Notes: a model not told the origin generated them from the sequence alone. Numbered from the stretch's first letter, positions 26 to 57,073 are shown. The stretch is 64,000 bases of DNA from Minisyncoccota bacterium (GCA_018063165.1 JAGOQU010000002.1:77471-141470), one strand, 5' to 3'. A program made the numbers and translations.

Positions 26-1105
26 ATGCTTCATCCACAATTTGATTTTGATTCTGCTATACGTTGGCACTTGGATCAAGTTCGTAAACTGCGCGCACCA
101 ACTGGACTTTTTACTGCGTCTGCAAGTGATGTCACAACGGGTTACAATAAAGCATGGCTTCGTGATATTTATTTCATGACTCTTGGTTTTAAGTACACAG
201 GTGAATGGAATGTTGTGCAAGATGCAGCAAGGGCACTTCTTAAAATTCTAGCTCTTCATAAAGATAAGATAACATGGGCAGTAAACAATAAGCCATTTGA
301 AACATGGCAATATATACATGCGAGATATAATCCAGAAACATTTGAAGAATATTGGGAGGAGTGGGGGAATAAACAGAACGATGCAGTTGGAGAAGTTTTA
401 TATCTCATTTGTGATTGTGAATTATCTGGATATTCTGTTCTTGAAACAGAAGAAGATAAACAGCTTGTTCAAATGCTTGTTAATTATTTGAATGCTATTG
501 AATATTGGCATGATGCTGATTCTGGTATTTGGGAAGAAAATCAGGAAATGAGAGCTTCTTCTATCGGGTCTGTTGTAAGAGCTCTTTCAACAGCAAAACA
601 ACTTCCTTTTATTTTAATTCCAGATGACGCAATAGAAAAAGGTAATCAAGCTCTTAGGTCACTTCTTCCACGTGAGACGTCTACACGTTTTTGTGATCTT
701 GCCCTCCTTACACTTATTTTTCCATTTGAAGTAACAACAGAAGAGGAGACAAAAACCATACTTTCAAATGTTGAATATTTTCTTACTCGTGATATGGGGG
801 TTATACGATATAGAAATGATAGATATTATAATAAAAATAAAATTGATGGATATAGCGAAGAGGCTGAGTGGTCTATGGGTCTCGCATGGCTTGCTATTAT
901 TTATGCAAAAAGAGGTGATCTTGAAAAAGCAAAATATTATTTAGAGAGGTCAGAGAAAACAGTAAATAAAGATGGGCTTATTCCAGAGCTTTGGTATTCT
1001 CACACAGAGGAATCAAATGATAATATTCCACTTGGGTGGGCAGAAAGTATGCATGTAGTTGCTCTTGTGTGTGTAAAAGATTTGATTGCTAAAAATACTC
1101 AGTAA
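26..1105 (+). CDS. glycoside hydrolase family 15-like (glucoamylase/glucodextranase family) protein
   Basis: 359 aa ORF. Motifs GYNKAWLRD and SGIWEE resemble the GH15 (alpha/alpha)6 signatures (WxRD and the WEE general-acid region). It is short for a full GH15 enzyme. Confidence 0.5.
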   Translation: MLHPQFDFDSAIRWHLDQVRKLRAPTGLFTASASDVTTGYNKAWLRDIYFMTLGFKYTGEWNVVQDAARALLKILALHKDKITWAVNNKPFETWQYIHARYNPETFEEYWEEWGNKQNDAVGEVLYLICDCELSGYSVLETEEDKQLVQMLVNYLNAIEYWHDADSGIWEENQEMRASSIGSVVRALSTAKQLPFILIPDDAIEKGNQALRSLLPRETSTRFCDLALLTLIFPFEVTTEEETKTILSNVEYFLTRDMGVIRYRNDRYYNKNKIDGYSEEAEWSMGLAWLAIIYAKRGDLEKAKYYLERSEKTVNKDGLIPELWYSHTEESNDNIPLGWAESMHVVALVCVKDLIAKNTQ

Positions 1106-1170
1106 AAGTACGTATGCTTGGTTTGTTGTTTTGTCACAAAAGACAATGTAACCTGTTATACTAAGTAAGT

Positions 1171-1545
1171 ATGAATATACAAAAAATAAATAGAATTGTT
1201 ACATATATTTTTGTTGTACTTGCATGGTCACCTCACGCAGTTAAAGAATGTGTAGACGTATGTAACGGGCCTATTTTTATATCTCCTTTACTAGTCGGTT
1301 TTTTTACACCATTTGTACAACTCGATATGTCGATGCGTGGTTTTTTAATGCAACTTATATGGTCTATTCCTTTTATTTTTGTTATGTGGGGTATGATGTA
1401 TATACGAGATAATACGAAATATGGCACTTTTCTAAAAGTGTACCTTGTAGCATGGATTATTTTCGCTGTTATACTTCTTACGCTCTATAATCTTTTATTT
1501 TGGGGAGGTCTTCGTTCTTATATTTTTCCATTGTTTTATTTTTAA
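1171..1545 (+). CDS. small hydrophobic membrane protein (hypothetical)
   Basis: 124 aa ORF with multiple predicted transmembrane segments, immediately upstream of the flavocytochrome gene. No recognisable motif. Confidence 0.3.
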   Translation: MNIQKINRIVTYIFVVLAWSPHAVKECVDVCNGPIFISPLLVGFFTPFVQLDMSMRGFLMQLIWSIPFIFVMWGMMYIRDNTKYGTFLKVYLVAWIIFAVILLTLYNLLFWGGLRSYIFPLFYF

Positions 1546-1556
1546 TACGTATTACT

Positions 1557-2900
1557 ATGCCAAACAAGCAACAACTTTTTTTACACAGATTTAGAAATTC
1601 GTGGAGAATGGTACTTGGTAGTATTCTTGTTGTTCCTTTAATTGTATGGTCACAAATAACACCACTGTCTGAACGTTTTTCTGATATGACTAGTATTTTT
1701 GATTCGTTAGGTCAAATCACTGGAATAACAGGCACCCTTCTTTTCTCGTGGTCACTTATTCTTAGTTACAGAAATAGAATAACAGAAATTATATTTGGTG
1801 GTCTTGATAAAGTGTATCGTATACATCATTTGTCGGGTATGTACGGGCTCTTTTTGCTTTTATTACACCCATTATTTTTGAGTGTAACGAAACTGTCATA
1901 TTCTGCTGAATATGCTATGAATTTTTTTACACCTTTTAAAACATCAACGGCTGTTGATTTTGGTATTTTCTCTCTTTTGTTTTTTATGATCCTTATAGGT
2001 ATTACTCTTTTTGGTGTTATTTTTTCTTATCAGTCACTCAAAAAATTTCATATGTTTCTTGGTGCTGCTTTTTTGCTTGGTGCTGTTCATGGTTTTTTGA
2101 TAGAAAGTGATATTAATGAAAATGTTTTTCTTCGTGTATGGGTTCTTGGTTTTGTTATTCTAGGACTGTGTTGTTATGTTGCCTATACATTTCTAAAAAA
2201 GATCACTGTTCCTAGAAAGTTATTTACTATTTCTGACGTACAAAAAAAAGAAGGAGGTGTTACTCAAGTTTCACTTGTTCCTATGACGGAAGGTATTGTT
2301 CATTTACCTGGACAATTTTGTTTTTTTTCTTTTGTTAATTCTTCTGTTGTAAAAAATAATGAAGCACATCCTTTTACAGTGTCTTCATGGAAAAATGATG
2401 GAAGTGTTGTTATTTCTGTTAAAACATTGGGTGATTTTACAGAGAGTTTTGCACAGGAAAAAGTTGGGGTTTTGGTTGAAGTAGAAGGACCCTTTGGTGA
2501 ATTTAGTTATGGGTATGGTTGCGAAAAACAAGTATGGATAGCAGGTGGTATTGGTGTAACACCTTTCGCTTCTTTTGCTGAACATATAGTAACTCAAAAA
2601 GATTTTATATATGATGTTGATTTTTTCTATTCTGTAAAAACAAAAAATGACGATGTATTTAATGATTTATTTAATAAAGTTTCAGAGTTACACCCTTCTT
2701 TTAAATATTATTGTGTACCAAGTGATACAGAAGGGTATGTATCTGGTGAAATGATTGTACAAAAAGTGTCTGACATCTTTGTTAGAGATATATTTATGTG
2801 TGGCCCACCTCTAATGATGAATTCATTAGAAGCTTCACTTGAAAAGTTAGATGTAAAACAGTCAAACATTCATTCGGAATTGTTTTCGTTATTAAAATAA
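1557..2900 (+). CDS. ferric-reductase/NADPH-oxidase-like flavocytochrome (heme-binding FRD domain plus FAD/NAD(P)-binding domain)
   Basis: Paired His in transmembrane helices (IHHLSGMYGLFLLLLHP and HMFLGAAFLLGAVHG) match bis-heme ferric-reductase spacing. HPFTVSS matches the FAD-binding HPFT motif and GGIGVTPFAS the NAD(P) motif. The first ATG is at 1557; the track ORF begins at a TTG at 1500. Confidence 0.7.
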   Translation: MPNKQQLFLHRFRNSWRMVLGSILVVPLIVWSQITPLSERFSDMTSIFDSLGQITGITGTLLFSWSLILSYRNRITEIIFGGLDKVYRIHHLSGMYGLFLLLLHPLFLSVTKLSYSAEYAMNFFTPFKTSTAVDFGIFSLLFFMILIGITLFGVIFSYQSLKKFHMFLGAAFLLGAVHGFLIESDINENVFLRVWVLGFVILGLCCYVAYTFLKKITVPRKLFTISDVQKKEGGVTQVSLVPMTEGIVHLPGQFCFFSFVNSSVVKNNEAHPFTVSSWKNDGSVVISVKTLGDFTESFAQEKVGVLVEVEGPFGEFSYGYGCEKQVWIAGGIGVTPFASFAEHIVTQKDFIYDVDFFYSVKTKNDDVFNDLFNKVSELHPSFKYYCVPSDTEGYVSGEMIVQKVSDIFVRDIFMCGPPLMMNSLEASLEKLDVKQSNIHSELFSLLK

Positions 2901-2911
2901 AATTACTTATT

Positions 2912-3451
2912 ATGAAAAATACTTTTATTATAGCTGTCTGTATATTTTGGGGATTCGTTATTGCTGTTATAAGTGCAGGGTATATTGTAAAACAAAATAG
3001 AATAGCTCAAGAAGATATGCAAAAGAAATATGTAGATAGTTTAAAACAGATAACTGAAAGTCTTGTAAAAACAAATCAAGGAAACACTACGACAACATCT
3101 CAACAAGCACAAGTTGTTACAAAGGGTGAGGGTGTTAAGAATGTGTCTGTAAGTAAAACTCCTACAAATGTAGGCCAAGCACCGTCTACTGTTACTTCAC
3201 CAAAGATTGTGTCTAATCAAAATTCTCTTACGATGGATATTGTAGCTAAGCATAATTCACAAAATGATTGTTGGATAGTAATTAATCGTAAGGTGTATTC
3301 TGTGACATCATATATTCCTATGCACCCAGGTGGAGCAAAAAGAATAGTACGATTGTGTGGTGCTGATGCTACTAGTGGATATGATGGACAAGGACATTCG
3401 AGTTACGCAAATTCGTTACTGGGTTCATATTTAGTTGGTCCTTTGCAATAA
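2912..3451 (+). CDS. membrane-anchored cytochrome b5-like heme-binding protein
   Basis: N-terminal transmembrane helix and a Thr/Ser-rich linker. The C-terminal CWIVINRKVYSVTSYIPMHPGG matches the cytochrome b5 signature (W..VYDVT.F...HPGG). Confidence 0.7.
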   Translation: MKNTFIIAVCIFWGFVIAVISAGYIVKQNRIAQEDMQKKYVDSLKQITESLVKTNQGNTTTTSQQAQVVTKGEGVKNVSVSKTPTNVGQAPSTVTSPKIVSNQNSLTMDIVAKHNSQNDCWIVINRKVYSVTSYIPMHPGGAKRIVRLCGADATSGYDGQGHSSYANSLLGSYLVGPLQ

Positions 3452-3455
3452 ATAA

Positions 3456-3797
3456 ATGAATTCTATTTTTCTTTTTACAGGTGTTACGGTGTGTGCGATA
3501 GGAACAGTATTTTTTTCTAATTCTCTTATTGCTCGTGAAAATAAAAAACAAGCAAACGCTGTAGTAACTTTTACAGACCAAAAATACAAAGAACATGTGG
3601 CAAGTCGTAAAGTTTCTGAGGTTCTGCCTACTAGTGTTTTAAAAAAAGAAACAGGGGGCACGAATACAAGTCTTATATTTCAATCTTCAAATTCTATTGG
3701 CGACACACAACAAAACAATAATAAAGCACAAGAACCACTTTCTGTAAAAAATAACATATATCATGATGAAGAGGATGAGGAAGAAGATGATGATTAA
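3456..3797 (+). CDS. hypothetical secreted/membrane protein with polyacidic C-terminal tail
   Basis: 113 aa. N-terminal hydrophobic segment and a DEEDEEEDDD tail. No known motif. Confidence 0.35.
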   Translation: MNSIFLFTGVTVCAIGTVFFSNSLIARENKKQANAVVTFTDQKYKEHVASRKVSEVLPTSVLKKETGGTNTSLIFQSSNSIGDTQQNNNKAQEPLSVKNNIYHDEEDEEEDDD

Positions 3798-3870
3798 AAT
3801 AGGTATCTGATTAGTAATTTTTTGAAATAGAATTTGCTTTTCATATTAGTAAGTGCTAATATGAAATAGT

Positions 3871-4137
3871 ATGGTTAAAAAAGAAAATATATATAAAGTG
3901 TTTTCAAATAAAAAAAGGGTAGAACTTATTATGTGTTTAACTCAAGAGAAATGTGTTACTGATTTACTTTCTTTGTGTACTCTTTCACAGTCAGCTTTAT
4001 CACAACATCTTAAAATATTAAAAGATGCAGATATGGTTTCTTGTAAGAGAGAATGGAAACAACAAAAATATCATGTTAAAAATAAACAGGTAAAAAAAAT
4101 AGCAGAATTATTATTAGCTTTAGAAAATAATATATAG
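3871..4137 (+). CDS. ArsR/SmtB family transcriptional regulator
   Basis: 88 aa. RVELIMCL...TDLLSLCTLSQSALSQHLKILKDADMV fits the ArsR winged-HTH pattern. Confidence 0.65.
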   Translation: MVKKENIYKVFSNKKRVELIMCLTQEKCVTDLLSLCTLSQSALSQHLKILKDADMVSCKREWKQQKYHVKNKQVKKIAELLLALENNI

Positions 4138-4140
4138 TAT

Positions 4141-4446
4141 ATGTTTGGATTATTTAGAAAAAAAGAAATGGTTGATGTAAAAGACTTGGTAAAAAATGGT
4201 GCGATTATACTTGATGTGCGTAGTAAAGAAGAATTTAATAGTGGTCATATTAAGGGAGCGGTTAATATTCCTTTAGATGCTCTTGCTTCGTCTGTTTCAA
4301 AACTTGGTAATAAAGATAAAAATATCATCACCTGTTGCATGTCAGGTGGAAGAAGTTCTATGGCAAAAAGTATTTTACATGGAGCTGGGTATAACAATGT
4401 TCATAATGGTGGTGGATGGCATTCTTTACAAAATAAACTTAATTAA
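4141..4446 (+). CDS. single-domain rhodanese-like sulfurtransferase
   Basis: 101 aa. DVRSKEEFNSGHIKGAVNIP and the CCMSGGRS active-site Cys loop are typical rhodanese. Confidence 0.75.
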   Translation: MFGLFRKKEMVDVKDLVKNGAIILDVRSKEEFNSGHIKGAVNIPLDALASSVSKLGNKDKNIITCCMSGGRSSMAKSILHGAGYNNVHNGGGWHSLQNKLN

Positions 4447-4459
4447 TTTTTTAAAAACT

Positions 4460-4702
4460 ATGACTAATAAAAAAGTGATCGTATATTCAACACAAGCGTG
4501 TCATTATTGTGTTTTGGCAAAAAATCATCTTACAAAAATGGGTGTTGCTTATGAGGATAAAAATGTTGGTGTAGATAGAGTGGCTGCACAAGAAATGATT
4601 ATGAAAAGTGGTCAAATGGGTGTTCCTGTTGTTGATATTGACGGGGAGATAATCGTAGGCTTTAGACCTGATGTTTTTGAAAAGCTTATTAATTCTAAAT
4701 AA
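4460..4702 (+). CDS. glutaredoxin-like protein (Grx/NrdH family)
   Basis: VIVYSTQACHYCVLAKNHL carries a CxxC motif and the thioredoxin-fold pattern. The internal ATG at 4460 was chosen because the track ORF 4277..4702 overlaps the upstream rhodanese gene. Confidence 0.7.
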   Translation: MTNKKVIVYSTQACHYCVLAKNHLTKMGVAYEDKNVGVDRVAAQEMIMKSGQMGVPVVDIDGEIIVGFRPDVFEKLINSK

Positions 4703-4709
4703 AAATAGA

Positions 4710-5705
4710 ATGAAAAATAAAAATAATAGCTTTGTATTATTTGGAGCAATTGGTTTGATTATATTTGCATTATTTATAGCAACTTTTACAAAGAGTAATT
4801 CTTGGCTTTTGGGTTCAGATTTTATGAATACATATAATGCTACTCCTAATTCTGTACTTGTGGATGTTAGAACTCCTGGTGAGTTTTTGACAGGACATAT
4901 TGATAAAGCTGTTAATATTGATTTTGAGAATCAGTCATTTCTTTCAGAGATTAAAAAACTTGACGTAAATAAAACATATTTCATTTATTGTCGCTCTGGC
5001 AATAGATCAGGACAGGTTATTTCTTTGATGAAAGCAAATGGAATAAAAAATATTTATGAACTACAAGGAGGAATTGTTTCTAATAAAAACACTATAACAC
5101 TTGTAACAGCAAATATCAGTGAGCCAGAATATGTTATTGATGAAAGTGATATGATTAATGGTCAGGCTCTTATTTCAGGAATAAAAAAATCAGAATTAAC
5201 TGAAAAGGAAAAACTTGGGCTTATTCAAATGCGTGAAGAAGAAAAATTAGCTCGAGATGTATATACAACACTTGGAAATGTATGGGGTACAAGAATCTTT
5301 TCTAATATTGCTTCTTCGGAACAAACACATACCGATGCTATAAAAGTGCTTCTTACAAGGTATACTATTAAAGACCCTGTAATAAATGATACTGTTGGAG
5401 TGTTCACTTCAAAAACTATGCAAGAACTTTATGATAATCTTGTTTCCCAAGGAAAAGTTTCATTATCAGAAGCTTTTAAAGTTGGTGCCACTATTGAAGA
5501 TTTAGATATTCATGATTTGGATATTCTTAAAAATGAAACAACGAAGGAAGATATTTTACTTACATACAACAATTTACAGAAAGGGTCTCGTAATCATTTA
5601 AGAGCTTTCGTAAGAGTAAGTGGTGTTAACTATACCCCTAAATATATTAGTCAGTCAGATTATGCTTCAATCATTAGCTCTTCTCAAGAAAGAGGGAGAC
5701 AGTAA
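4710..5705 (+). CDS. membrane-anchored rhodanese domain fused to a ferritin-like (DUF2202-type) domain
   Basis: N-terminal transmembrane segment. Rhodanese motifs VDVRTPGEFLTGHIDKAVNI and YCRSGNRSGQ. The C-terminal half (EEEKLARDVY ... SEQTHTDAIKVLL ... RNHLRAF) resembles the ferritin-like DUF2202 family. Start placed at the ATG after the glutaredoxin stop. Confidence 0.55.
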   Translation: MKNKNNSFVLFGAIGLIIFALFIATFTKSNSWLLGSDFMNTYNATPNSVLVDVRTPGEFLTGHIDKAVNIDFENQSFLSEIKKLDVNKTYFIYCRSGNRSGQVISLMKANGIKNIYELQGGIVSNKNTITLVTANISEPEYVIDESDMINGQALISGIKKSELTEKEKLGLIQMREEEKLARDVYTTLGNVWGTRIFSNIASSEQTHTDAIKVLLTRYTIKDPVINDTVGVFTSKTMQELYDNLVSQGKVSLSEAFKVGATIEDLDIHDLDILKNETTKEDILLTYNNLQKGSRNHLRAFVRVSGVNYTPKYISQSDYASIISSSQERGRQ

Positions 5706-5728
5706 TTATTACAATCTAAAATAGTACT

Positions 5729-6631
5729 ATGAAAATAATTAAAAATATCGGAGTCTTTGATAGAGTTATTAGATTATTTCTTTCAGAAATTTTTTTCTTA
5801 CTTGCATTTTTCTGGACATATGGAACATTACAGATCGTGTTATACGTTCTTTCGTTTGTAATGCTCGCTACGTCATTATTTAGATTCTGTGGTTTGTATA
5901 CTCTTTTCAAAATAAATACTTGTCCTTCAAATGAAAAGCTCATGTCAAAATTCACAATTGGTTTTTCCGTATTACTTTTTGTTGTAATAGCTGTGGTGGG
6001 AAGTTACTACAGCACCTTCTTCACTAAAAAATTCTTTTTAGAAGATTACAATAGAATGAATCAATACTACAAGCAAACACTTTTCTTTACTGGTCAGAAC
6101 AATCGGACAGAAGCAGTGAGTAATTACACTAATCTTGTGAAAGAGTACAGCGTTTTCTATAATAAATATTATACATATCACCCATTTGTTATTTCAAAAG
6201 ATGAGTATTTTAATGAAGATTTAATTTTAATTAAAGATAAAATTATTTCACTTGAAACTGATGTGAATAGTGGAAACCTACTTTCTACCCATTTGGAATT
6301 TGAAATAATTAGACCAATTTTCCAAGATATTTTAAAAAGGAATAATTTTTCAATGCTTGCTGTTTACTTGGTAGATTTTCATGATGCTATGGAAAAGGTT
6401 ATTGCAGGTGCAGATGCTAAGAATGCTTCAGAAGTTATTTCTGTATATCAAGAGGTAAGTGATAAACTAAAAGCAGTAGAAGATGTTGCAAATGATATAG
6501 AGATACAAACTATTCGTCAGAAATTAGAACAAATCACAGCTTCTGCAAGAAGTGGAAATGTGGAAGTTTTACCTACACAAGGAGCAGAATTAAAAAGTAG
6601 CTTTGTTAAAGTGTATTTAAAGAGAGGATAA
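5729..6631 (+). CDS. DUF2892 (YgaP-like) membrane-domain protein with C-terminal extension of unknown function
   Basis: N-terminus IGVFDRVIRLFL ... RFCGLYTLFKINTCP matches the DUF2892 pattern (DR.IR ... G.CP.Y...G..TC). That domain is commonly associated with rhodanese genes. Confidence 0.45.
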   Translation: MKIIKNIGVFDRVIRLFLSEIFFLLAFFWTYGTLQIVLYVLSFVMLATSLFRFCGLYTLFKINTCPSNEKLMSKFTIGFSVLLFVVIAVVGSYYSTFFTKKFFLEDYNRMNQYYKQTLFFTGQNNRTEAVSNYTNLVKEYSVFYNKYYTYHPFVISKDEYFNEDLILIKDKIISLETDVNSGNLLSTHLEFEIIRPIFQDILKRNNFSMLAVYLVDFHDAMEKVIAGADAKNASEVISVYQEVSDKLKAVEDVANDIEIQTIRQKLEQITASARSGNVEVLPTQGAELKSSFVKVYLKRG

Positions 6632-6655
6632 TAATAGAAAATAAATAATAAAAAT

Positions 6656-6880
6656 ATGTCAGTATTTAAAATAAAAACATCACATTGGTATATAGGAAGA
6701 ATTGTGTATCTTCTTGCTGGAATTATTACGCTCACATCAGGATTACTCGTTTTAACTACAGGGGTGGTAGCTTGGGCGTTTCTCGCATTATTCGTCGCAC
6801 TTATGCAAATAATTTTTGCTCTAACTGGATATTGTTTGAGTGCAATTATTATGGATAAGTTTGGTATTCCAAGAGAATAA
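6656..6880 (+). CDS. small DUF2892-family membrane protein
   Basis: 74 aa, two transmembrane segments. GRIVYLLAG ... LTGYCLSAIIMDKFGI is DUF2892-like. Confidence 0.45.
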   Translation: MSVFKIKTSHWYIGRIVYLLAGIITLTSGLLVLTTGVVAWAFLALFVALMQIIFALTGYCLSAIIMDKFGIPRE

Positions 6881-6915
6881 AAAGTGTTCTATCTAATTAA
6901 TACATTTTTTATATA

Positions 6916-8427
6916 ATGAAGAAAAACATAAAAAATATAATACATAATAGTGTTTATTTTAGACGTGTTTTTTTAATTAAAATAGTATTGTTTATTGTTT
7001 TATGTGTAGGTATTTGGAATGTTTGGAAACCTTTACCTGAAAATATTAATAAAAAATGGGGGCAAAGAAATGTGAATGAATCTCAGGTTGCATTTTTGCA
7101 AGACACTACTTACTTTACTTCCGAGGGAGAAAGGAAAGTTGATCAACATATTTTTAATGAAGTTATAGGTATGGTGCGTAATGCGCATTCCTATATTCTT
7201 GTAGATATGTTTTTATGGAATGATTATCTTGGTGGATCAACTACAACACAAAGAAAAATCGCACAAGAATTAGCAACAGAACTTATTCTTAAAAAGAAAG
7301 AAAATCCAAATATAGTAATTGAAGTAATTAGTGACCCTATTAATATTTCCTATTACGGAGGAGTGTCTGATATTTTTGAAAACATGAAAAAGTCTGGTAT
7401 TGATGTAACATTTACGAACCTTTCAAAATTAAGAGACAGTAATCCACTTTTTTCTTCTTTTTGGAGAGTTTTTGTTAATTCTCTTGATATGTTACACGTA
7501 TATCTTTTTAATTCTTATTATACATTTAGAATTTTCCCTAATATTATTAATGCTGGTGGTGAGCCTGTAACACTACGATCATTTCTCTCATTGTTAAATT
7601 TTAAAGCTAACCATAGAAAATTAATAGTTACAGATGAGTTTAGAGAGGGTGGTATACATTATGTAAGCTTAGTGGCATCAGCAAATCCTCACGATGGATC
7701 AAGTTCTCATAGTAATGTAGCAATTAAGATTGACGGTGATATAGCGAAAGATATTATTCTAAGTGAAAATCAGATTTTAAATCTCTCAGGAAAAAGTACT
7801 AAAGCTCAGACATTAGATAACGTTGCGCCTAGTGGTGATATAAAAGTTGCTTTAGTTACAGATGGTGCTATTAAAGATGAAGTTATTTCTCTTATAAGAA
7901 ATACACAAAAAGGTGATTCTATTAATCTGTTAATGTTTTATATTTCAGATAGGGATATTATTAGAGAATTGGTTGATGCTGCAAAAAGAGATGTTTCTGT
8001 GCATATTATTCTTGACCCAAATAAAGATGCGTTTGGAAGAGAGAAAAATGGAATTCCTAATAGAGAAACCGCTGATTCTTTAGTTAAAAAAAGTTCCAAT
8101 AAAATAGTTATTAGATGGTGTGATACACATGGAGAACAGTGTCATGGAAAAATGCTATTAGTAAAACAAAAAGATACACATTCAGTGTTACTTGGTTCAG
8201 CTAATTATACAAGAAGAAATATCGGTGGATATAATCTTGAGACAGATATTTTAGTAACATCAAAAAATGTATTTACAGCATGGAATGATTCATCAGAATA
8301 TTTTTCAAAACTTTGGAATAATGAAAATATGCTTTTTACAACTGAATATACTGTATACAAAGACGAATCAGTTTTTAAGAAAATAATTTCTTGGATAATG
8401 GAAAATAGTGGAGTAGGAACATTTTAA
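6916..8427 (+). CDS. phospholipase D / cardiolipin synthase family protein
   Basis: N-terminal transmembrane segment. Two HKD-like motifs: HRKLIVTD ... SANPH and HGKMLLVKQKDTHSVLLGSANYTRRN. Confidence 0.55.
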   Translation: MKKNIKNIIHNSVYFRRVFLIKIVLFIVLCVGIWNVWKPLPENINKKWGQRNVNESQVAFLQDTTYFTSEGERKVDQHIFNEVIGMVRNAHSYILVDMFLWNDYLGGSTTTQRKIAQELATELILKKKENPNIVIEVISDPINISYYGGVSDIFENMKKSGIDVTFTNLSKLRDSNPLFSSFWRVFVNSLDMLHVYLFNSYYTFRIFPNIINAGGEPVTLRSFLSLLNFKANHRKLIVTDEFREGGIHYVSLVASANPHDGSSSHSNVAIKIDGDIAKDIILSENQILNLSGKSTKAQTLDNVAPSGDIKVALVTDGAIKDEVISLIRNTQKGDSINLLMFYISDRDIIRELVDAAKRDVSVHIILDPNKDAFGREKNGIPNRETADSLVKKSSNKIVIRWCDTHGEQCHGKMLLVKQKDTHSVLLGSANYTRRNIGGYNLETDILVTSKNVFTAWNDSSEYFSKLWNNENMLFTTEYTVYKDESVFKKIISWIMENSGVGTF

Positions 8428-8495: not shown

Positions 8496-10829
8496 ATGAA
8501 CAATGATAAAAATTTTGATGCATACATACGTGCTGCGAACTATCTTTCAGCGGCACAGATTTTTTTACAAGATAATTTTTTACTAGAGAGGCCGCTTTCC
8601 TTTGATGATATTAAACCAAGACTTCTTGGACATTGGGGTACCGCACCTGGTATTAATTTGTTGTATGCGCATCTAAATGCTCTTGTTCAAAAGCATGATA
8701 TTAATATGCTTTTCGTTCTTGGTCCTGGACATGGTTTTGCTGGACTTCAGGCGAATCTTTTTATGGAAGGAACTCTTTCTAAATACTATCCTGATTTACC
8801 TCAAAATTTTGATGGAATGAAAAAAATGACAAAGATGTTTAGTTGGCCTTATGGTTTTCCGAGTCATACAAATCCAGGTACACCAGGAGCTATTTTAGAA
8901 GGAGGGGAATTAGGATATTCTCTTTCTGTTGCATATGGTGCGGTATTAGATAATCCTGACCTTATTGCAGTTGCTATGGTTGGTGATGGTGAATCAGAAA
9001 CTGGCCCAATGGCAACAGCTTGGCATTTAAATAAATTTATTGATCCACAAACTAACGGTACAGTACTTCCTGTACTACACCGTAATGGATATAAAATTTC
9101 AGGGCCTACTATTTTTGGACGTATGTCTCATGAAGAATTAGAGTCTTTATTTACAGGATATGGTTATCATCCATATTTTGTTGATGGTGGTGAAGGTGTT
9201 CATGCAAGGTTATCAGAAACGCTTGAGGCTTGTTATAACGAGATACAGGAAATTAAAAAAACATCTCCTGTTTCTCCTCGTATGCCTATGATTATTCTTA
9301 CAACAGAAAAAGGAGAAGGAGGTATTAAGACATTACATGGAAAGAAAATTGAAGGTAACTTTGCCTCTCATCAAGTGGTAGCAACAAATGCAAAAACTGA
9401 CCCAGAAGAACTTGCGTTAGTTGAAGAATGGCTTCGTTCATACAGATTTAATGAATTATTTAGTCCTGAACATGGTTTTATTGATGACATAAAAGCTCTT
9501 GTTCCAAAAGAAGAAAGGAGGATTGGTGATAATAAGCATTGTTTTGGTGGTGATGCTGTATATAAAGATCTTTCTTTACCAGATGTTGATGCTGACGCAA
9601 GTGATGTTACTGAAAGAGGTGTAACACTTTCAAGTAATATGAAAGCTGCTGGAAATTATTTAAAAAGAGTTATTGAACATAATGAAGAAACTAAAAATTT
9701 TAGAATCTTTTCACCAGATGAAACATACTCAAATAAGTTAGATGCTATTTTTGGAGCAACTAAACGAGCTTTTGTGTGGCCTCATATGGACCACGATGAA
9801 GATCTTGCTAAAAATGGAAGAGTTATAGAAATGCTTTCAGAGCATTCGCTTCAAGGGTTAATGCAAGGATATGTGCTTACTGGTCGCCATGGAGTATTTC
9901 CTTCATATGAAGCGTTTGTGCAGATTATAGGAAGTATGACTGATCAATATATTAAGTTTATTCGTGTTGCACGAGAAATACCATGGAGAGGAAAAGTTTC
10001 TTCTCTTAATTATATTTTAACAAGTCCTGGATGGGCACAAGAACATAATGGTTTTTCTCATCAAAATCCTGGTTTTATTGATACACTTCTTCAAAAACAT
10101 GGTCCATTTGTACACGTGTATTTCCCAGCAGATAAAAATATGACTCTTGTTGTTCTTAAAAAATCACTCGAATCAAAACAAGAAGTAAACGCTATAGTTT
10201 CAGGAAAAGCTGATTTCCCTGAATGGCTAACACTACGTGAAGCAAAAGAGGCTGTGGATAGAGGGGTGATGGTATGGGATTTTGCTTCAGACTCAAACCC
10301 AGATATTGTTCTTTCTTCTGTGGGAGATTATTTAACTAAAGAATGTTTAGCTGCAATTACGATACTTAAAGAAGATATACCTGAAGTGAGGATTCGTTTT
10401 GTTAATATAGTTGAGCTTACGGCTACTGGTATTGGTTCAGGAAACAAGAGTATACCATTCTCTTCTTTTGAAGATTATTTTACTCACGATAAACCGGTTA
10501 TTCTTAATTTTCATGGATACCCAGAAACAATTAAACAAAAATTATTTGATCAAAAAAGTGCACACAATAGATTCTTTGTTCACGGATACACAGAACACGG
10601 TTCAACAACAACACCGTTTGATATGCAGGTGAGAAATAAAACAAGTAGACTTCATTTATCTATGGAAGCTGTTGTATTGCTTGAGAAAAATGAAGTTATA
10701 TCTCCTAACAAAGCTACTGAATTAATACACAAATACAAAACATTACTTGAAGAACATCTTGTGTATATTAAAGAACACGGAGAAGATCCTTCGTATATTG
10801 CAAACTGGCAATGGAAAAAAATATCTTAG
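8496..10829 (+). CDS. xfp: xylulose-5-phosphate/fructose-6-phosphate phosphoketolase
   Basis: 777 aa. LLGHWGTAPGINLLYAHLN, GPGHG and the TPP-binding GDGE region match phosphoketolase throughout, and the length is typical. Confidence 0.9.
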   Translation: MNNDKNFDAYIRAANYLSAAQIFLQDNFLLERPLSFDDIKPRLLGHWGTAPGINLLYAHLNALVQKHDINMLFVLGPGHGFAGLQANLFMEGTLSKYYPDLPQNFDGMKKMTKMFSWPYGFPSHTNPGTPGAILEGGELGYSLSVAYGAVLDNPDLIAVAMVGDGESETGPMATAWHLNKFIDPQTNGTVLPVLHRNGYKISGPTIFGRMSHEELESLFTGYGYHPYFVDGGEGVHARLSETLEACYNEIQEIKKTSPVSPRMPMIILTTEKGEGGIKTLHGKKIEGNFASHQVVATNAKTDPEELALVEEWLRSYRFNELFSPEHGFIDDIKALVPKEERRIGDNKHCFGGDAVYKDLSLPDVDADASDVTERGVTLSSNMKAAGNYLKRVIEHNEETKNFRIFSPDETYSNKLDAIFGATKRAFVWPHMDHDEDLAKNGRVIEMLSEHSLQGLMQGYVLTGRHGVFPSYEAFVQIIGSMTDQYIKFIRVAREIPWRGKVSSLNYILTSPGWAQEHNGFSHQNPGFIDTLLQKHGPFVHVYFPADKNMTLVVLKKSLESKQEVNAIVSGKADFPEWLTLREAKEAVDRGVMVWDFASDSNPDIVLSSVGDYLTKECLAAITILKEDIPEVRIRFVNIVELTATGIGSGNKSIPFSSFEDYFTHDKPVILNFHGYPETIKQKLFDQKSAHNRFFVHGYTEHGSTTTPFDMQVRNKTSRLHLSMEAVVLLEKNEVISPNKATELIHKYKTLLEEHLVYIKEHGEDPSYIANWQWKKIS

Positions 10830-11968
10830 TTGTTAATATAGGTAGTTCTTCAAAAAAATATTCTTTCTACAGTAAAGGAGAGCTAGTTCTTGGTGCTCAT
10901 TTTGAAAAAGATAAAGAAATATTTGAGGTGACGTATGGAAAAGAAGACCCAACCCCTATATCTAAGAATGTCTTTAATGATAGTATTTCAGCATTTTATA
11001 ATGCGCTTTATGCTAGAAAAATAATACAAGAGGGCGGTGTCACTGTATCTGCAATAGGAATGAGAATGGTTGCACCAGGTTTATATTTTACTGAGAATAG
11101 AATTGTCGATTCATTTTTTATGAATATGCTTAAAGAGGTTTCAAAAGAAGATTCTTTACATATTGAGCCTATACAAAAGGAGTTATCAAGAATAAAAGAA
11201 ATTTTTGGAGAAGTTAAGGTGTTTGCAATATCGGATAGTGCTTTTCATCGCACCATGCCGAGTGTTTCAAAAAATTATGCTTTACCAAAGAAAATTATTG
11301 AAGAGTTTGGTTTGTATCGTTTTGGGTATCATGGTATTTCGCTTGCAAGCATAGTGTCTTCGTTAGTAAAAAGAAGTGTTCCACTAGAAAGAAAAATAGT
11401 TATTTGTCATCTTGGTAGTGGTGCTAGTGTGACCGCAGTTCTTGATGGTAAAAGTATAGAGACATCTATGGGGTATTCTCCTCTTGAAGGTCTTGTAATG
11501 AGTTCACGTACTGGTTCTATTGATGTTGGTGCTATTCTTCGTCTTTTTGAAAAAGGTAATACAGAAGAGCTTAGAGAAACTTTTTATAACAAAAGTGGTC
11601 TTTTGGCTCTTAGTGGTCTTTCTAACGATATGAGAGTTCTTATTGATAAAGAAAAAGAAGGTCATGTTGGTGCCAAAAATGCAATAGACGCTTTTGCTTA
11701 TGGTGTAAGAAAACATATAGCTATGGCAGTATCTGCACTTAACGGTATAGATCTTCTTGTTTTTTCTGGAACAATAGGAGAAAGATCTTTTATTCTTCGT
11801 GAGCGTATTTGTAGAGATTTAGGATGGCTAAATGTTAATGTAGACAATGAAAAGAATATACTTGCAAAAAGTGGTGAGTATATAAGTGTATATGGTTCAC
11901 TTGGTGTATGTGTGATGCATAGTGATGAGGATATAGAAATTATGAATAATGTTGAGGATCTTTTATAA
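10811..11968 (+). CDS. ackA: acetate kinase
   Basis: 385 aa. N-terminal ILVVNIGSSSKKYSFY matches the acetate kinase signature (LVLNCGSSSIKY). The start overlaps the xfp 3' end by 19 nt. Confidence 0.85.
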   Translation: MEKNILVVNIGSSSKKYSFYSKGELVLGAHFEKDKEIFEVTYGKEDPTPISKNVFNDSISAFYNALYARKIIQEGGVTVSAIGMRMVAPGLYFTENRIVDSFFMNMLKEVSKEDSLHIEPIQKELSRIKEIFGEVKVFAISDSAFHRTMPSVSKNYALPKKIIEEFGLYRFGYHGISLASIVSSLVKRSVPLERKIVICHLGSGASVTAVLDGKSIETSMGYSPLEGLVMSSRTGSIDVGAILRLFEKGNTEELRETFYNKSGLLALSGLSNDMRVLIDKEKEGHVGAKNAIDAFAYGVRKHIAMAVSALNGIDLLVFSGTIGERSFILRERICRDLGWLNVNVDNEKNILAKSGEYISVYGSLGVCVMHSDEDIEIMNNVEDLL

Positions 11969-13338: not shown

Positions 13339-13752
13339 ATGAAAAAACAAGACGCTTCGATGCCTAGTGTTCACATGGACTATCATCCTAAATTAGTTAA
13401 AGAGGGTGTTTTTATTCTTGAAGAAGAAGTGTGGAGTACTCAAAAGCGTATAGCACGTATTTATGGTAGAAGTATTCCTACAATAAACGATCATCTTAAG
13501 AAAATATATCAAGAAAAAGAACTCATGAAAGCTTTGAGTGAACGTATACTTATGGTTACTCAACAAGAGGGGAAGAAAAAGGTTGCGAGAAAAACATATG
13601 TGTATAATAGTGATATGGTTATTGCTATAGGTTTTCGTGTGAAAGGAGAGTGGGGTAAAGAGTTTCGTGTATGGGCACGTGAAGTGGTAAGAGCGAGTTA
13701 TGATCCAAGAGATCAGGTAAGACATCTTATAGGTAGTCACCCCTTAGGATAA
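13339..13752 (+). CDS. RhuM-family protein, N-terminal fragment (truncated)
   Basis: 137 aa. QKRIARIYGRSIPTINDHLKKIYQEKEL ... GFRVKGEWGKEFRVWAREVV matches the N-terminal region of RhuM-family proteins, which are about 330 aa full length. Its 3' end overlaps the convergent FAD-oxidase gene. Confidence 0.45.
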   Translation: MKKQDASMPSVHMDYHPKLVKEGVFILEEEVWSTQKRIARIYGRSIPTINDHLKKIYQEKELMKALSERILMVTQQEGKKKVARKTYVYNSDMVIAIGFRVKGEWGKEFRVWAREVVRASYDPRDQVRHLIGSHPLG

Positions 13753-15336
13753 TTTTTTTCTTGTTAAGTGTTCTTTGGAATAATTTAGTGTAATGCCTAA
13801 TTTTTTACCTGGATTAAATATGTGAAGCGGATCCCATGCTTCTTTTATTTTTTTAAATATATCAACAGTAGCTTCGTTATACACAAAAGGTAGATAAGGT
13901 GTTCTAGAAACACCTTCACCATCTTTTGCGCTTATTCCTCCTTTATATTTTTTTATAATAGTAAAAATAGTCTGAGTATAGTTTTCTATTTCTTGTTCAT
14001 ATGTTAGAGAAAGAGGGTTGAAAAGAGTTGTAACAGAAATATGACCACTTCCTGCGTTTCCGGTTATTACGTATAATTTTCCAGTTGAATAAAGGTATGT
14101 TTCTAATTCCTCTAAAACAAGAGCGTATTTAGTATTGGAGACTATAAGTGCGTCACAGGAGTATATTGGGGTAAGCGAACCTTGTGTGTATGTTTGTAAC
14201 AGATTTTCTAAAAAAGAAGTTTCTGTTATTTTTTCAATAAAAGAACTGTCCTCGTACACAATACTATTGTTATTTTGTAGATGTGTTTCGTGTGTATATT
14301 TTTTTATGCAATTTTTTACATGTTCTTCGCTGTTTCCGTAAAAAGAAATACATAGAGCGTACGATGCATCGGGGAAAGATAAAAGAGTTTCTGGTCTATA
14401 TCTGTCTGTAAGTTCCATGAAAGTAGAGTCATAGAGAAAAATATGATCAGCATTATGTTGCACAGCTTTTTCTATGTAATTATGCATACTTTCTTTTTCT
14501 TGTATAGGTATACATATCGTTTCTGTATATTGTTTTAGAGGCGTTAATCGTAATGTTACTGTTGTAATTATTCCTAGAGTACCCTCTGATCCAACAATGT
14601 GATTAATAAGTTGCCGTGGGCCTATAGAAGTATTCCATAAGGCATACCCCGTAGCATCATCATTTATATCTGGCTTAGATGCACGAAGCATGGGGCCATT
14701 TTCTGTAAGTATAGGAAAAATAGATTGATAAATACCAAGTAATCTACCACTAGGGCTTACACCATCTCGTATGTGATGTTCCTCACCTGTGTCCACAACA
14801 ATAGTAATGTTCTCTACCCATTCTCGTATTGTGCTTTGTCTAAAAGATGTAGGTGTAACACTTTTAGTTGCTAGTAATGAGGCTATAGTAGAGTGATTGT
14901 TTTGTGCAGTAAGTATTGGAATATCTACATGTAGAGCGTGTAGTTGTTCTCTTAGTTTTTTTATAGTAACACCTGCGTCAACAGTTATTGTTTGGTCAAG
15001 TACATTAATTTGACGTATGTGATTAAAATACCTTGTCATATCAATAATGATCCCTTCACCAATAGAACCTCCTGTATTTGAGGTGCCGTTACCTCTTACT
15101 GTTACAGGCATAGTATATTCACGTGCAAAAGAAAGAATATGTTTTATGTCTGTAACATTTTTTGGATAGAGTATGGCTTGCGGTCTTATTGTGTAAGGTG
15201 ATTTTGTGGTACTGTATTTTTGTATAGATTCTAAGGAACATTCAATTTCACCAGTAATAGATTTTGCTAGTTCTGAAAAAAGAGGGGGAACATGAGAAAA
15301 AATGTTAGATACCTTTATCATAGATACTCTCACCAT
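13744..15336 (-). CDS. FAD-linked oxidase (GlcD/D-lactate dehydrogenase family)
   Basis: 530 aa. N-terminal FAD_binding_4-like region (YTMPVTVRGNGTSNTGGSIGEGIIIDM) and a C-terminal FAD-oxidase-like region. Confidence 0.65.
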   Translation of the reverse strand: MVRVSMIKVSNIFSHVPPLFSELAKSITGEIECSLESIQKYSTTKSPYTIRPQAILYPKNVTDIKHILSFAREYTMPVTVRGNGTSNTGGSIGEGIIIDMTRYFNHIRQINVLDQTITVDAGVTIKKLREQLHALHVDIPILTAQNNHSTIASLLATKSVTPTSFRQSTIREWVENITIVVDTGEEHHIRDGVSPSGRLLGIYQSIFPILTENGPMLRASKPDINDDATGYALWNTSIGPRQLINHIVGSEGTLGIITTVTLRLTPLKQYTETICIPIQEKESMHNYIEKAVQHNADHIFLYDSTFMELTDRYRPETLLSFPDASYALCISFYGNSEEHVKNCIKKYTHETHLQNNNSIVYEDSSFIEKITETSFLENLLQTYTQGSLTPIYSCDALIVSNTKYALVLEELETYLYSTGKLYVITGNAGSGHISVTTLFNPLSLTYEQEIENYTQTIFTIIKKYKGGISAKDGEGVSRTPYLPFVYNEATVDIFKKIKEAWDPLHIFNPGKKLGITLNYSKEHLTRKKLS

Positions 15337-52994: not shown

Positions 52995-53185
52995 ATTGAA
53001 TAGTATAACTCTTTTTTTAGAAATAAATAGTTGGAGGAATCGGTCACAAAACTACCTCGCTTTGCTCGAAGTAGTTTCCCGACCCGTATTCGATTCCGCC
53101 GAAAGCCAAGCAGTTGGCTTTCTCCTTTTCCTCACTGAAATATAAAAATACCCCTAGGGTTACCTAAGGGTATTTTTATATTTAG

Positions 53186-53575
53186 TGGAGGTGGGCGGAA
53201 TCGAACCCCCGTGTACTAAGGTATGATGCATGGGTCTACTGTACGTAGTTTGCTTATATGTGTTCGCATGCATTATAGAAAACAAACGAAAACAATGAAT
53301 GTATAGCATGAATTATTTCAATAGTAATGCTATGCAACATTACAATCTACTTCCACTGTTATATTGCCCAGACTTTTTCCGTGGTTACGAAAAAGAAGGA
53401 CACCCGGTCGGCCAGTATTTAGGCGAACGCAGGAACTAGACCAAACGCGTATGGCGATGGAATAGCCTTACCAGTTGTTTTTGCAACATGGGCGCTCTAA
53501 CGTTAACGAGTGCTAGAGCAGTCTCGGTACAGCGCATACAACATATTCTTAGTGTCAAAGCCAAAGATCACCCCC
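53186..53575 (-). ncRNA. ssrA: tmRNA (ssrA)
   Basis: Minus-strand 5' end GGGGGUGAUCUUUGGCUUUGACAC resembles tmRNA 5' ends (GGGGCUGAUUCUGGAUUCGAC). The 3' end has a T-arm GGGGGUUCGAUUCCGCC and acceptor CACCUCC pairing with the 5' GGGGGUG, then A/CUA. An internal ORF begins at a GCA resume-like codon and encodes AKTTGKAIPSPYAFGLVPAFA followed by stop. smpB is adjacent. Confidence 0.7.
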
Positions 53576-57000: not shown

Positions 57001-57073
57001 TGCGCCCACCAGGACTCGAACCTGGGACCAGTCGTGTATAAGACGACGGCTCTACCAACTGAGCTATAGGCGC
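57001..57073 (-). tRNA. tRNA-Ile (anticodon UAU)
   Basis: Manual fold of the minus strand. Acceptor GCGCCUA / UGGGCGC, D-arm GCUC-AGUUGGUA-GAGC, anticodon stem GUCGU / ACGAC with loop CUUAUAC (U33, A37, anticodon UAU), variable loop UGGUC, T-arm CCAGG-UUCGAGU-CCUGG, discriminator A. No encoded CCA. Confidence 0.75.

Follow-up and report, generated by a model that had tools for sequence, protein, structure and literature searches.

A putative SpNOX-type flavocytochrome and its membrane-tethered cytochrome b5 partner in a Minisyncoccota genome: a candidate outlet for NAD(P)H electrons

The bacterial NADPH oxidase (NOX) homologue SpNOX serves as the closest described point of comparison for the gene pair reported here, which lies near the beginning of a 64,000-nucleotide stretch of DNA from a Minisyncoccota bacterium (GCA_018063165.1 JAGOQU010000002.1:77471-141470; this whole stretch is referred to below as the window). 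The pair consists of a gene for a predicted SpNOX-type flavocytochrome (positions 1557-2900) and, directly after it, a gene for a putative membrane-tethered cytochrome b5 (2912-3451). Cryo-electron microscopy of SpNOX revealed an outer haem that is highly solvent-exposed and no canonical O2-reduction centre, and the enzyme reduces cytochrome c directly under anaerobiosis. In the same structural work mutations of candidate O2 sites had no effect and the knockout gave no phenotype; O2 was questioned as the physiological acceptor, and an unidentified protein acceptor was postulated.

Gene pairs of the kind found in the window have been reported before, although they were not characterised, and the domains themselves would not surprise a specialist. 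A preprint on the origins of MAPR proteins (10.1101/2021.11.17.468889) found PF01794 and PF00173 genes at most 10 kb apart in 185 of 1427 genomes of the candidate phyla radiation (CPR) that bear a putative ferric reductase (pFre). Its authors envisaged a membrane complex with 'an unknown CPR-specific function' and reported no such neighbours in genomes other than those of CPR. Its text mentions no disulfides, signal peptides, or extracellular or periplasmic location. The window pair falls within the cluster definition used there, its PF01794 and PF00173 genes being 11 nt apart in a CPR genome. The preprint, however, centred on MAPR-like (Tyr-ligated) cytb5MY and two-component regulators, whereas the cytochrome b5 of the window is predicted to be of the canonical bis-His kind; neither a MAPR-like cytb5MY nor a two-component regulator was found among the window genes at 26-8427.

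Another related group is formed by the MsrQ-like systems, known mainly from Actinobacteria, in which the gene of a PF01794+PF00175 protein is accompanied by genes for ApbE and for an extracytosolic protein that binds FMN, and for which an outward transport of electrons from cytosolic NAD(P)H was proposed (Meheust et al. 2021, PMC8238504). The window pair resembles them in having a PF01794 bis-haem protein, in those systems usually fused to PF00175, with a carrier encoded alongside. It differs in the carrier, which is an ApbE-flavinylated FMN-binding protein there and a putative b-type haem protein here; no match to ApbE or FMN_bind was obtained for the window genes at 26-8427. MsrPQ (YedYZ) and the Listeria Ndh2-EetAB-PplA system likewise pass electrons from a cytoplasmic or membrane pool via a membrane protein to a tethered or periplasmic carrier or enzyme. 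MsrQ, however, receives its electrons from quinol or Fre, has no fused dehydrogenase domain and serves a molybdoenzyme partner, and the Listeria system employs quinones and flavins instead of haems.

The flavocytochrome and cytochrome b5 genes belong to a run of four plus-strand genes arranged head to tail, separated by gaps of 11, 11 and 4 nt. The genes and their main features are as follows:

1171-1545, plus strand: small membrane protein, 124 aa, its stop codon 11 nt before the NOX-like gene
1557-2900, plus strand: predicted SpNOX-type flavocytochrome, 447 aa, ATG start, assigned by Pfam, fold and ligand conservation
1824-1868, plus strand: haem ligands of transmembrane helix 3, H90 (1824-1826, inner haem) and H104 (1866-1868, outer haem), aligned with SpNOX His69 and His83
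2049-2090, plus strand: haem ligands of transmembrane helix 5, H165 (2049-2051, inner haem) and H178 (2088-2090, outer haem), aligned with SpNOX His129 and His142
2367-2378, plus strand: FAD-binding motif HPFT, residues 271-274, inside the FAD_binding_8 match
2544-2573, plus strand: NAD(P)H-binding motif GGIGVTPFAS, residues 330-339
2799-2810, plus strand: CGPP, residues 415-418
2883-2885, plus strand: C-terminal aromatic residue F443, matching SpNOX F397 in position
2912-3451, plus strand: putative membrane-tethered cytochrome b5, 179 aa, starting 11 nt past the NOX-like stop codon and matching Pfam Cyt-b5
2921-2989, plus strand: N-terminal hydrophobic anchor of the cytochrome b5, residues 4-26, one helix
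3227-3448, plus strand: b5 domain, residues ~106-179, Pfam Cyt-b5
3269-3397, plus strand: key b5 residues C120 (3269-3271), H138 (3323-3325), C149 (3356-3358) and H162 (3395-3397)
3456-3797, plus strand: acidic-tailed small protein, 113 aa, starting 4 nt past the b5 stop codon

The G+C content of the window is 30-37%, and the NOX-like protein is 100% identical to a database protein from a 'Candidatus Pacebacteria' metagenome-assembled genome (MAG), which places the organism in the CPR (Patescibacteria). In a promoter and terminator scan of positions 900-4200 the number of sites was not above that of shuffled sequence, thus the proposed operon structure rests on the 4-11 nt gene spacing.

The assignment of the gene at 1557-2900 relies on its domains, its haem ligands and its predicted fold. 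Pfam recognised Ferric_reduct (PF01794; residues 55-175, E-value 4e-8), FAD_binding_8 (PF08022; 2e-7), NAD_binding_1 (PF00175; 6e-11) and NAD_binding_6 (PF08030; 5e-5), all above the curated gathering cut-offs. The N-terminal half corresponds to a six-helix bis-haem ferric reductase domain (FRD; residues ~15-217) and the C-terminal half to a FAD/NAD(P)H dehydrogenase domain (~220-447). Six His residues are located in the membrane half, those within helices being H90, H91 and H104 in one group and H165 and H178 in another, and the ligand pairs are spaced by 14 (H90/H104) and 13 (H165/H178) residues. An alignment of 25 NOX-like homologues (32-79% identity) shows H104 and H178 in every sequence, and H90 and H165 with a conservation of at least 90%. 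H271, P272 and F273 of the FAD motif are invariant or nearly so; A329, G330, G333, T335, P336, F337, C415 and F443 do not vary, and conservation reaches at least 90% for G331, G416 and P417.

The closest solved relative by sequence is SpNOX (8qt6/8qq7, E-value 2e-30 over residues 56-438), whose ligand numbering (His69/83 and His129/142) was taken from 10.1101/2023.10.17.562464. The AlphaFold2 model of the window protein (mean predicted local distance difference test score, pLDDT, 88; predicted template modelling (TM) score 0.81) has helices at residues 15-34, 44-70, 83-113, 131-151, 158-181 and 190-217, followed by a β/α dehydrogenase domain. When the model was searched with Foldseek, full-length SpNOX was the top match in the PDB (E-value 1e-25, TM-score 0.75/0.83), and the dehydrogenase domain superimposed on that of SpNOX with a TM-score of 0.91 and a root-mean-square deviation of 2.1 A. 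The same domain also matches NADH-cytochrome b5 reductases (b5R), namely 2eix with an E-value of 8e-11 and many further b5R folds. The four Lys/Arg residues of the N-terminus, together with six helices, would place the dehydrogenase domain in the cytoplasm. In the model, H90 and H165 are near the inner face of the membrane and H104 and H178 near the outer face, as in SpNOX, and the predicted extracytoplasmic loops (35-43, 114-130 and 182-189) are short.

These data point to a NOX/FRE-type, more precisely SpNOX-type, flavocytochrome that probably binds two haems and FAD. It shares with SpNOX (8QT6, 8QQ7) the single chain uniting six-helix bis-haem and FAD/NAD(P)H domains, the His spacing of 14 and 13, the conserved C-terminal aromatic residue and the short outer loops. 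It differs in that sequence identity is ~23%, in that the C loop of the window protein is ~13 residues longer in the alignment, and in that the acceptor of SpNOX is not known, whereas the window gene has a dedicated b5 gene directly after it. A preliminary description of this locus, made from the DNA alone, had recognised the bis-haem FRD and the FAD/NAD(P) dehydrogenase architecture, as well as a membrane-anchored cytochrome b5 with an HPGG motif in the next gene, and the matches to Ferric_reduct, FAD_binding_8, NAD_binding_6 and Cyt-b5, the alignment of the His pairs with SpNOX and the fold match bear this out. It placed two His pairs correctly within helices, while giving the protein 448 instead of 447 residues and both spacings as about 13. 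Its starting point at 1171 belongs to the separate gene for the 124-aa membrane protein (1171-1545), of which it made no mention.

The partner protein of 179 residues matches Pfam Cyt-b5 (PF00173) at residues 108-178 with an E-value of 2e-19. Both haem ligands are present, H138 in HPGG (138-141) and H162 in GHS (161-163), and the domain aligns with 52 solved b5-domain sequences. Judged by its sequence, the protein is a canonical (classical) bis-His cytochrome b5. The nearest solved relative of the domain is the Ectothiorhodospira vacuolata cytochrome b558 (1CXY, E-value 4e-15), with which not only both haem ligands but also C120 and C149 align, the latter two with both Cys residues of 1CXY. 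The proteins are otherwise different: b558 is soluble, with four extra residues inserted ahead of the second His, whereas the window protein is anchored by its N-terminal helix and carries a linker of ~75-80 residues rich in Thr, Ser, Gln, Val and Lys. Among 52 b5 domains encoded beside NOX-like genes both Cys residues are conserved in 100% and both His residues in 98%, while a eukaryotic-type b5 has Thr/Ala at the two Cys positions.

The preliminary description regarded the combination as eukaryote-like, which the comparison does not uphold. The eukaryotic b5R/b5 couple resembles the window pair in that a FNR-type FAD/NAD domain is paired with a b5 haem carrier. However, the eukaryotic reductase, which is soluble or tail-anchored, is devoid of the FRD membrane domain, the couple operates on the cytosolic face, and its b5 is anchored by a C-terminal tail and lacks the Cys pair, whereas the b5 of the window is closest to b558.

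In the b5 proteins of the family a short N-flank of positive charge, usually MKK, precedes a hydrophobic segment of ~23 residues, and a polar linker comes next. In 31 of 38 proteins the N-terminal side of the segment has a higher net charge than the C-terminal side (means +1.7 versus +0.3), and the linkers, 10-251 residues long, consist to 66% of Ser, Thr, Pro, Asn, Gln, Gly and Ala. A positive N-flank, a hydrophobic segment and a polar linker are hallmarks of signal-anchored surface proteins. For the window protein the charge rule alone does not fix the orientation; an outward one is suggested by homology to the clearer family members, by the Cys pair and by the linker composition, and the b5 domain would thus face the outside of the membrane. 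The case for an extracytoplasmic, tethered b5 of a putative disulfide type has not been made for such pairs before.

The distribution of the pair was analysed by scanning one genome per prokaryotic species with a NOX-like profile and retrieving the best 80 loci, 77 of which have sequence downstream of the NOX-like gene. A hidden Markov model of the b5 domain, built from relatives of the window b5, was run on six-frame open reading frames (ORFs) of the 80 loci, with an E-value below 1e-10 counted as a strong match. Such a match was located on the same strand within a few hundred bases downstream in 34 of the 77 loci, and a weaker b5-like match occupied the directly downstream position in nine, giving 43 loci with a b5 or b5-like gene directly after the NOX-like gene; a b5 elsewhere in the locus was found in two more. 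In an all-against-all comparison of neighbouring ORFs, b5 was the sole broadly conserved neighbour. The homologous loci come from many CPR lineages, among them Saccharibacteria, Nomura-, Azam-, Falkow-, Magasanikii-, Buchanan- and Staskawiczbacteria and Paceibacterota. No b5 match was found in eight loci labelled Actinomycetota, Actinomycetes or Solirubrobacterales, of which L045, L069 and L078 have no sequence past the NOX-like gene and are therefore uninformative, nor in the Chloroflexota and Fimbriimonadaceae loci.

On this sequence evidence CPR bacteria commonly carry the NOX-b5 pair as a module. The association noted in the preliminary description is therefore real and conserved (43/77 loci), but hardly 'unexpected', as it was called there, given this frequency and the earlier report (10.1101/2021.11.17.468889). 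In contrast to the statement in that preprint, the module is not confined to CPR: two Pacearchaeota MAGs (L020 and L024) carry it, and Pfam confirmed their Cyt-b5 domains. The occurrence of the pair in archaea of the DPANN group is a new observation.

Several MAGs labelled as 'uncultured Gammaproteobacteria' (L010, L025, L036, L039, L044, L049, L058, L064, L067 and L080) and one labelled 'Pseudomonadales' (L027) also contain NOX-like genes. Some of the records so labelled carry CPR-type NOX-b5 modules, and such third-party labels may be unreliable.

Two loci are close enough to the window for a comparison of whole neighbourhoods. In L082 (79% identity) both the four-gene unit and the wider surroundings are kept. 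In L083 (58% identity) both flanks differ, and the 124-aa, NOX-like, b5 and small acidic-tailed genes are still together. Since L083 keeps the module within other flanks, the unit seems to be autonomous, and a functional link to either xfp-ackA or the neighbouring cluster of ArsR, rhodanese and glutaredoxin genes was rejected. The fermentation genes that the preliminary description emphasised as context are indeed present, ~5 kb downstream of the pair; a functional connection to them does not follow.

The position after the NOX-like gene is not always filled by a single b5 domain. Partners with two b5 domains occur in L007, L013, L036, L041 and L043, and one with three in L049 (2473-4284, minus strand). 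The extreme case is a Saccharibacteria-labelled protein of 1201 aa (L003:6895-10497) with eight b5 domains (Pfam Cyt-b5, E-value 3e-138), the gene of which comes after one encoding a single-domain b5. The haem ligands and the Cys pair are kept in every domain of the tandem partners, whose arrangement fits a chain extending from the membrane. Phrase searches of the literature yielded no description of tandem, extracellular or secreted multi-b5 proteins.

Three other partners (L025:1446-2156, L029:6410-7108 and L064:6330-7046) comprise an N-terminal anchor, a Cys-containing, weakly b5-like domain and a Thr/Pro stalk, and end in LPRTG, LPKTG and LPVTG, respectively, plus a hydrophobic tail, i.e. 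a sortase-type cell-wall sorting signal. Their likeness to b5 is weak (E-value ~1e-3 when six sequences were searched with the filters disabled) and no more than suggestive.

In five DPANN loci (L008:2030-2395, L022:6245-6502, L023:6182-6607, L052:6254-6622 and L059:6263-6685) the b5 slot contains a peptide made up of an anchor and a Thr/Pro-rich linker, without b5. The five peptides share the C-terminus ...(V/R)TRAS; their stop codons differ and there is no read-through ORF. An ApbE flavin-transferase gene is located immediately upstream of the NOX-like gene in all five (Pfam ApbE, E-value ~1e-49 for the L022 and L059 genes). Altogether ApbE stands beside the NOX-like gene in seven loci, the window not being among them. 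Comparison with the [S/T]GA[S/T] pattern raises the idea that the TRAS end may be a minimal flavinylation site.

The multi-b5, LPXTG and ApbE-linked variants are described here for the first time. Taken as sequences, they suggest that the slot repeatedly holds a membrane-tethered extracytoplasmic element, which would be a redox carrier or be associated with carrier-making machinery. They also suggest a modular family of tethered extracytoplasmic carriers that one type of membrane enzyme would serve. Inspection by eye had also indicated a PepSY-like domain after the b5 in L005, L007, L041 and L067. Pfam detected none in L007 and L067, and we make no claim for it.

Based on these observations, we suggest that electrons pass from NAD(P)H via FAD and two transmembrane haems to the extracytoplasmic, tethered b5 and from there to an external acceptor, a reading to which we give a probability of roughly 55%. 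It draws on the observed domain architecture, ligand conservation, fold, gene linkage and extracytoplasmic-type features of the partner. The cytoplasmic dehydrogenase domain would oxidise NAD(P)H, reducing its FAD, and single electrons would then move through the six-helix membrane domain from the inner haem (H90/H165) to the outer haem (H104/H178). The exposed outer haem would, as we infer, pass its electron directly to the haem of the b5 partner. Held outside the cell by its N-terminal anchor and long flexible linker, the b5 might ferry electrons one by one to an acceptor on the outside, candidates being Fe(III) and O2 as well as a surface enzyme and the surface of a host cell.

The net effect in a fermenter without a respiratory chain would be the regeneration of NAD(P)+ and the disposal of electrons outside. 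Patescibacteria and DPANN were described as lacking electron-transport chains and relying on fermentation (Beam et al. 2020, PMC7507113), thus such an outlet for NAD(P)H should be useful to them. The DPANN loci with ApbE and tethered peptides parallel the published MsrQ-like systems (PMC8238504), which lends support to the proposed export of electrons. As to the physiological role, the preliminary description had named extracellular electron transfer along with the handling of O2 or reactive oxygen species (ROS); the former is favoured here, and the latter is retained as a rival explanation discussed below.

Several points weigh against this proposal. The N-flank of the window b5 (MKN) has a charge of +1 and the 15 residues that follow its anchor (KQNRIAQEDMQKKYV) a net charge of +2, so that the post-anchor charge outweighs the N-flank. 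The likeness to b558 speaks for an outward location only as far as that protein is periplasmic and its Cys residues form a disulfide, as is reportedly the case. The comparison of neighbouring ORFs revealed no terminal acceptor or enzyme co-conserved beside the pair. CPR bacteria are, as a rule, considered incapable of haem synthesis, and the three haems per unit would then need to be scavenged. Finally, cells of Patescibacteria gave no signal with an oxidoreductase probe, an observation from one groundwater sample that its authors regarded as tentative (PMC7507113).

The alternative that survives best, although we consider it rather unlikely, is an assimilatory ferric or cupric reductase, in which the same electron chain would serve the reduction of extracellular Fe(III) or its chelates for uptake. 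The family is annotated in this way, and for MsrQ-like clusters of Actinobacteria, which co-occur with the iron transporter VIT1, a role in the reduction of iron for assimilation was proposed (PMC8238504). One may also conjecture that the poly-acidic tails of many b5 partners could bind cations. On the other hand, no iron or metal transporter is co-conserved with the pair, none is adjacent to it in the window, and the multi-domain b5 chains look oversized for assimilation.

It is improbable that the pair works as a cytoplasmic b5R/b5 couple, with the FAD/NAD(P)H domain directly reducing a cytoplasmic b5 that serves a cytoplasmic or membrane-bound enzyme, for example a desaturase or hydroxylase. 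The relationship of the dehydrogenase domain to NADH-cytochrome b5 reductases would agree with it, as would the charges around the anchor of the window b5, since residues after it that are more positive than the N-flank allow a C-in topology under the positive-inside rule. Conservation of all four transmembrane haem ligands, however, implies that the membrane path is under selection, and the invariant Cys pair matches b558, unlike cytosolic b5. The charge bias and the polar Thr/Ser/Pro linkers of the family point outward, and so do the sortase-type signals on related partners. Moreover, no desaturase or P450 is co-conserved, and none is present among the 34 window ORFs scanned (26-35729).

To much the same degree we doubt that the flavocytochrome is a genuine NADPH oxidase, whose outer haem would reduce O2 to superoxide or H2O2 (for scavenging or as a source of ROS), with b5 as an accessory, a stabiliser or a ROS-limiting sink. 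The window protein has the architecture of NOX enzymes, and SpNOX oxidises NAD(P)H with O2 in vitro (10.1101/2023.10.17.562464). The SpNOX work itself, however, casts doubt on O2, as recounted above. In the alignment of 25 homologues no invariant or near-invariant Arg or non-ligand His was detected in the outer helix halves and loops; the sole invariant Arg, R72, lies in the cytoplasmic B loop of the model. A canonical NOX oxygen site is therefore not evident, and the family alignment lacks the Arg plus non-ligand His of the NOX2/NOX5/DUOX-type O2-reduction centre. A dedicated, conserved haem partner with up to eight domains is also difficult to see as an accessory. The haems of NOX have potentials of about -225 and -265 mV, whereas those of cytochrome b5 range from about -100 to +20 mV. 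Transfer from the outer haem to b5 would thus be downhill and b5 a poor generator of superoxide, which speaks against ROS production as the purpose.

Very improbable is an MsrPQ-like supply, in which an extracytoplasmic enzyme of repair or maturation, for instance a methionine sulfoxide reductase, would receive electrons from the membrane haems and b5. MsrQ is a member of the same FRD superfamily and likewise has an exposed outer haem, on which a protein partner docks, and the window contains a thiol/sulfur-redox cluster (ArsR, rhodaneses, glutaredoxin) shortly after the unit, yet no MsrP, other molybdoenzyme or other reductase is co-conserved and the cluster is absent beside the module in L083.

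If the proposed electron export through a tethered b5 is true, bacterial NOX homologues would have in cytochrome b5 the physiological protein acceptor that has long been sought, that is, the 'protein acceptor' postulated in the structural work on SpNOX; this link to the acceptor problem is new. The CPR/DPANN gene pair provides a specific candidate acceptor, which can be expressed and assayed with its cognate enzyme. A more far-reaching and so far tentative suggestion, which we hold to be doubtful rather than probable, is that CPR bacteria and DPANN archaea share a haem-b extracellular electron conduit, in which a SpNOX-type enzyme feeds a tethered b5, in some lineages in chains of up to eight domains or wall-anchored, and fermentative reducing power is dumped on external acceptors or hosts. 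The multi-b5 proteins would then be a b-haem counterpart of the multihaem c-type cytochrome wires. A widespread NAD(P)H-driven outlet would alter models of redox balance in CPR and DPANN, and possibly of their dependence on hosts or oxidants. Two questions are made testable in this way, namely what bacterial NOX homologues reduce and how CPR and DPANN balance their redox state.

The remaining two genes of the unit encode small proteins. The 124-aa protein contains the motifs PHAxKECVxxCxGP, HGFLMQ and YNLLFWGGxR, with H22, C27 and C31 invariant, and has no Pfam family at cut-off; its AlphaFold2 model is of low confidence (pLDDT 51). Its gene is found directly upstream of the NOX-like gene in L082 (74% identity) and L083 (54% identity), keeping this position in the latter although the flanks differ. 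The family is tiny, with 12 close homologues and five representatives in a profile search of 1.8 billion proteins, and the protein is a putative clade-specific accessory; a p22phox-like partner role would be pure conjecture.

The 113-aa protein, possibly the fourth member of the unit, starts with one hydrophobic helix, continues into a variable region and ends in a poly-acidic tail (HDEEDEEEDDD), and gave no match in Pfam or NCBIfam. An acidic-tailed counterpart of its gene also follows b5 in L082 and L083. Similar tails (e.g. EDDD, DDDEEEDD) form the C-terminal end of the b5 protein in L004, L009, L011, L013, L020, L024, L026, L032, L036 and L044, while in the window clade they are placed on a separate small anchored protein instead.

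Other features located in the window are:

3871-6880: thiol/sulfur-redox gene run, syntenic in L082 and absent beside the module in L083
8496-10829: xfp (phosphoketolase), confirmed
10811-11968: ackA (acetate kinase), confirmed
13744-15336, minus strand: FAD-linked oxidase (FAD_binding_4 + FAD-oxidase_C) of the D-lactate/glycolate dehydrogenase type
53183-53575, minus strand: tmRNA gene (Rfam scan, 81 bits)
57001-57073, minus strand: one tRNA gene (Rfam scan)

The run at 3871-6880 encodes an ArsR-type regulator, a rhodanese, a glutaredoxin-like ORF (within 4277-4702), a rhodanese-DUF2202 fusion, a YgaP-like membrane protein and a small membrane protein. The FAD-linked oxidase at 13744-15336 represents another flavoenzyme in an oxidoreductase-poor genome.

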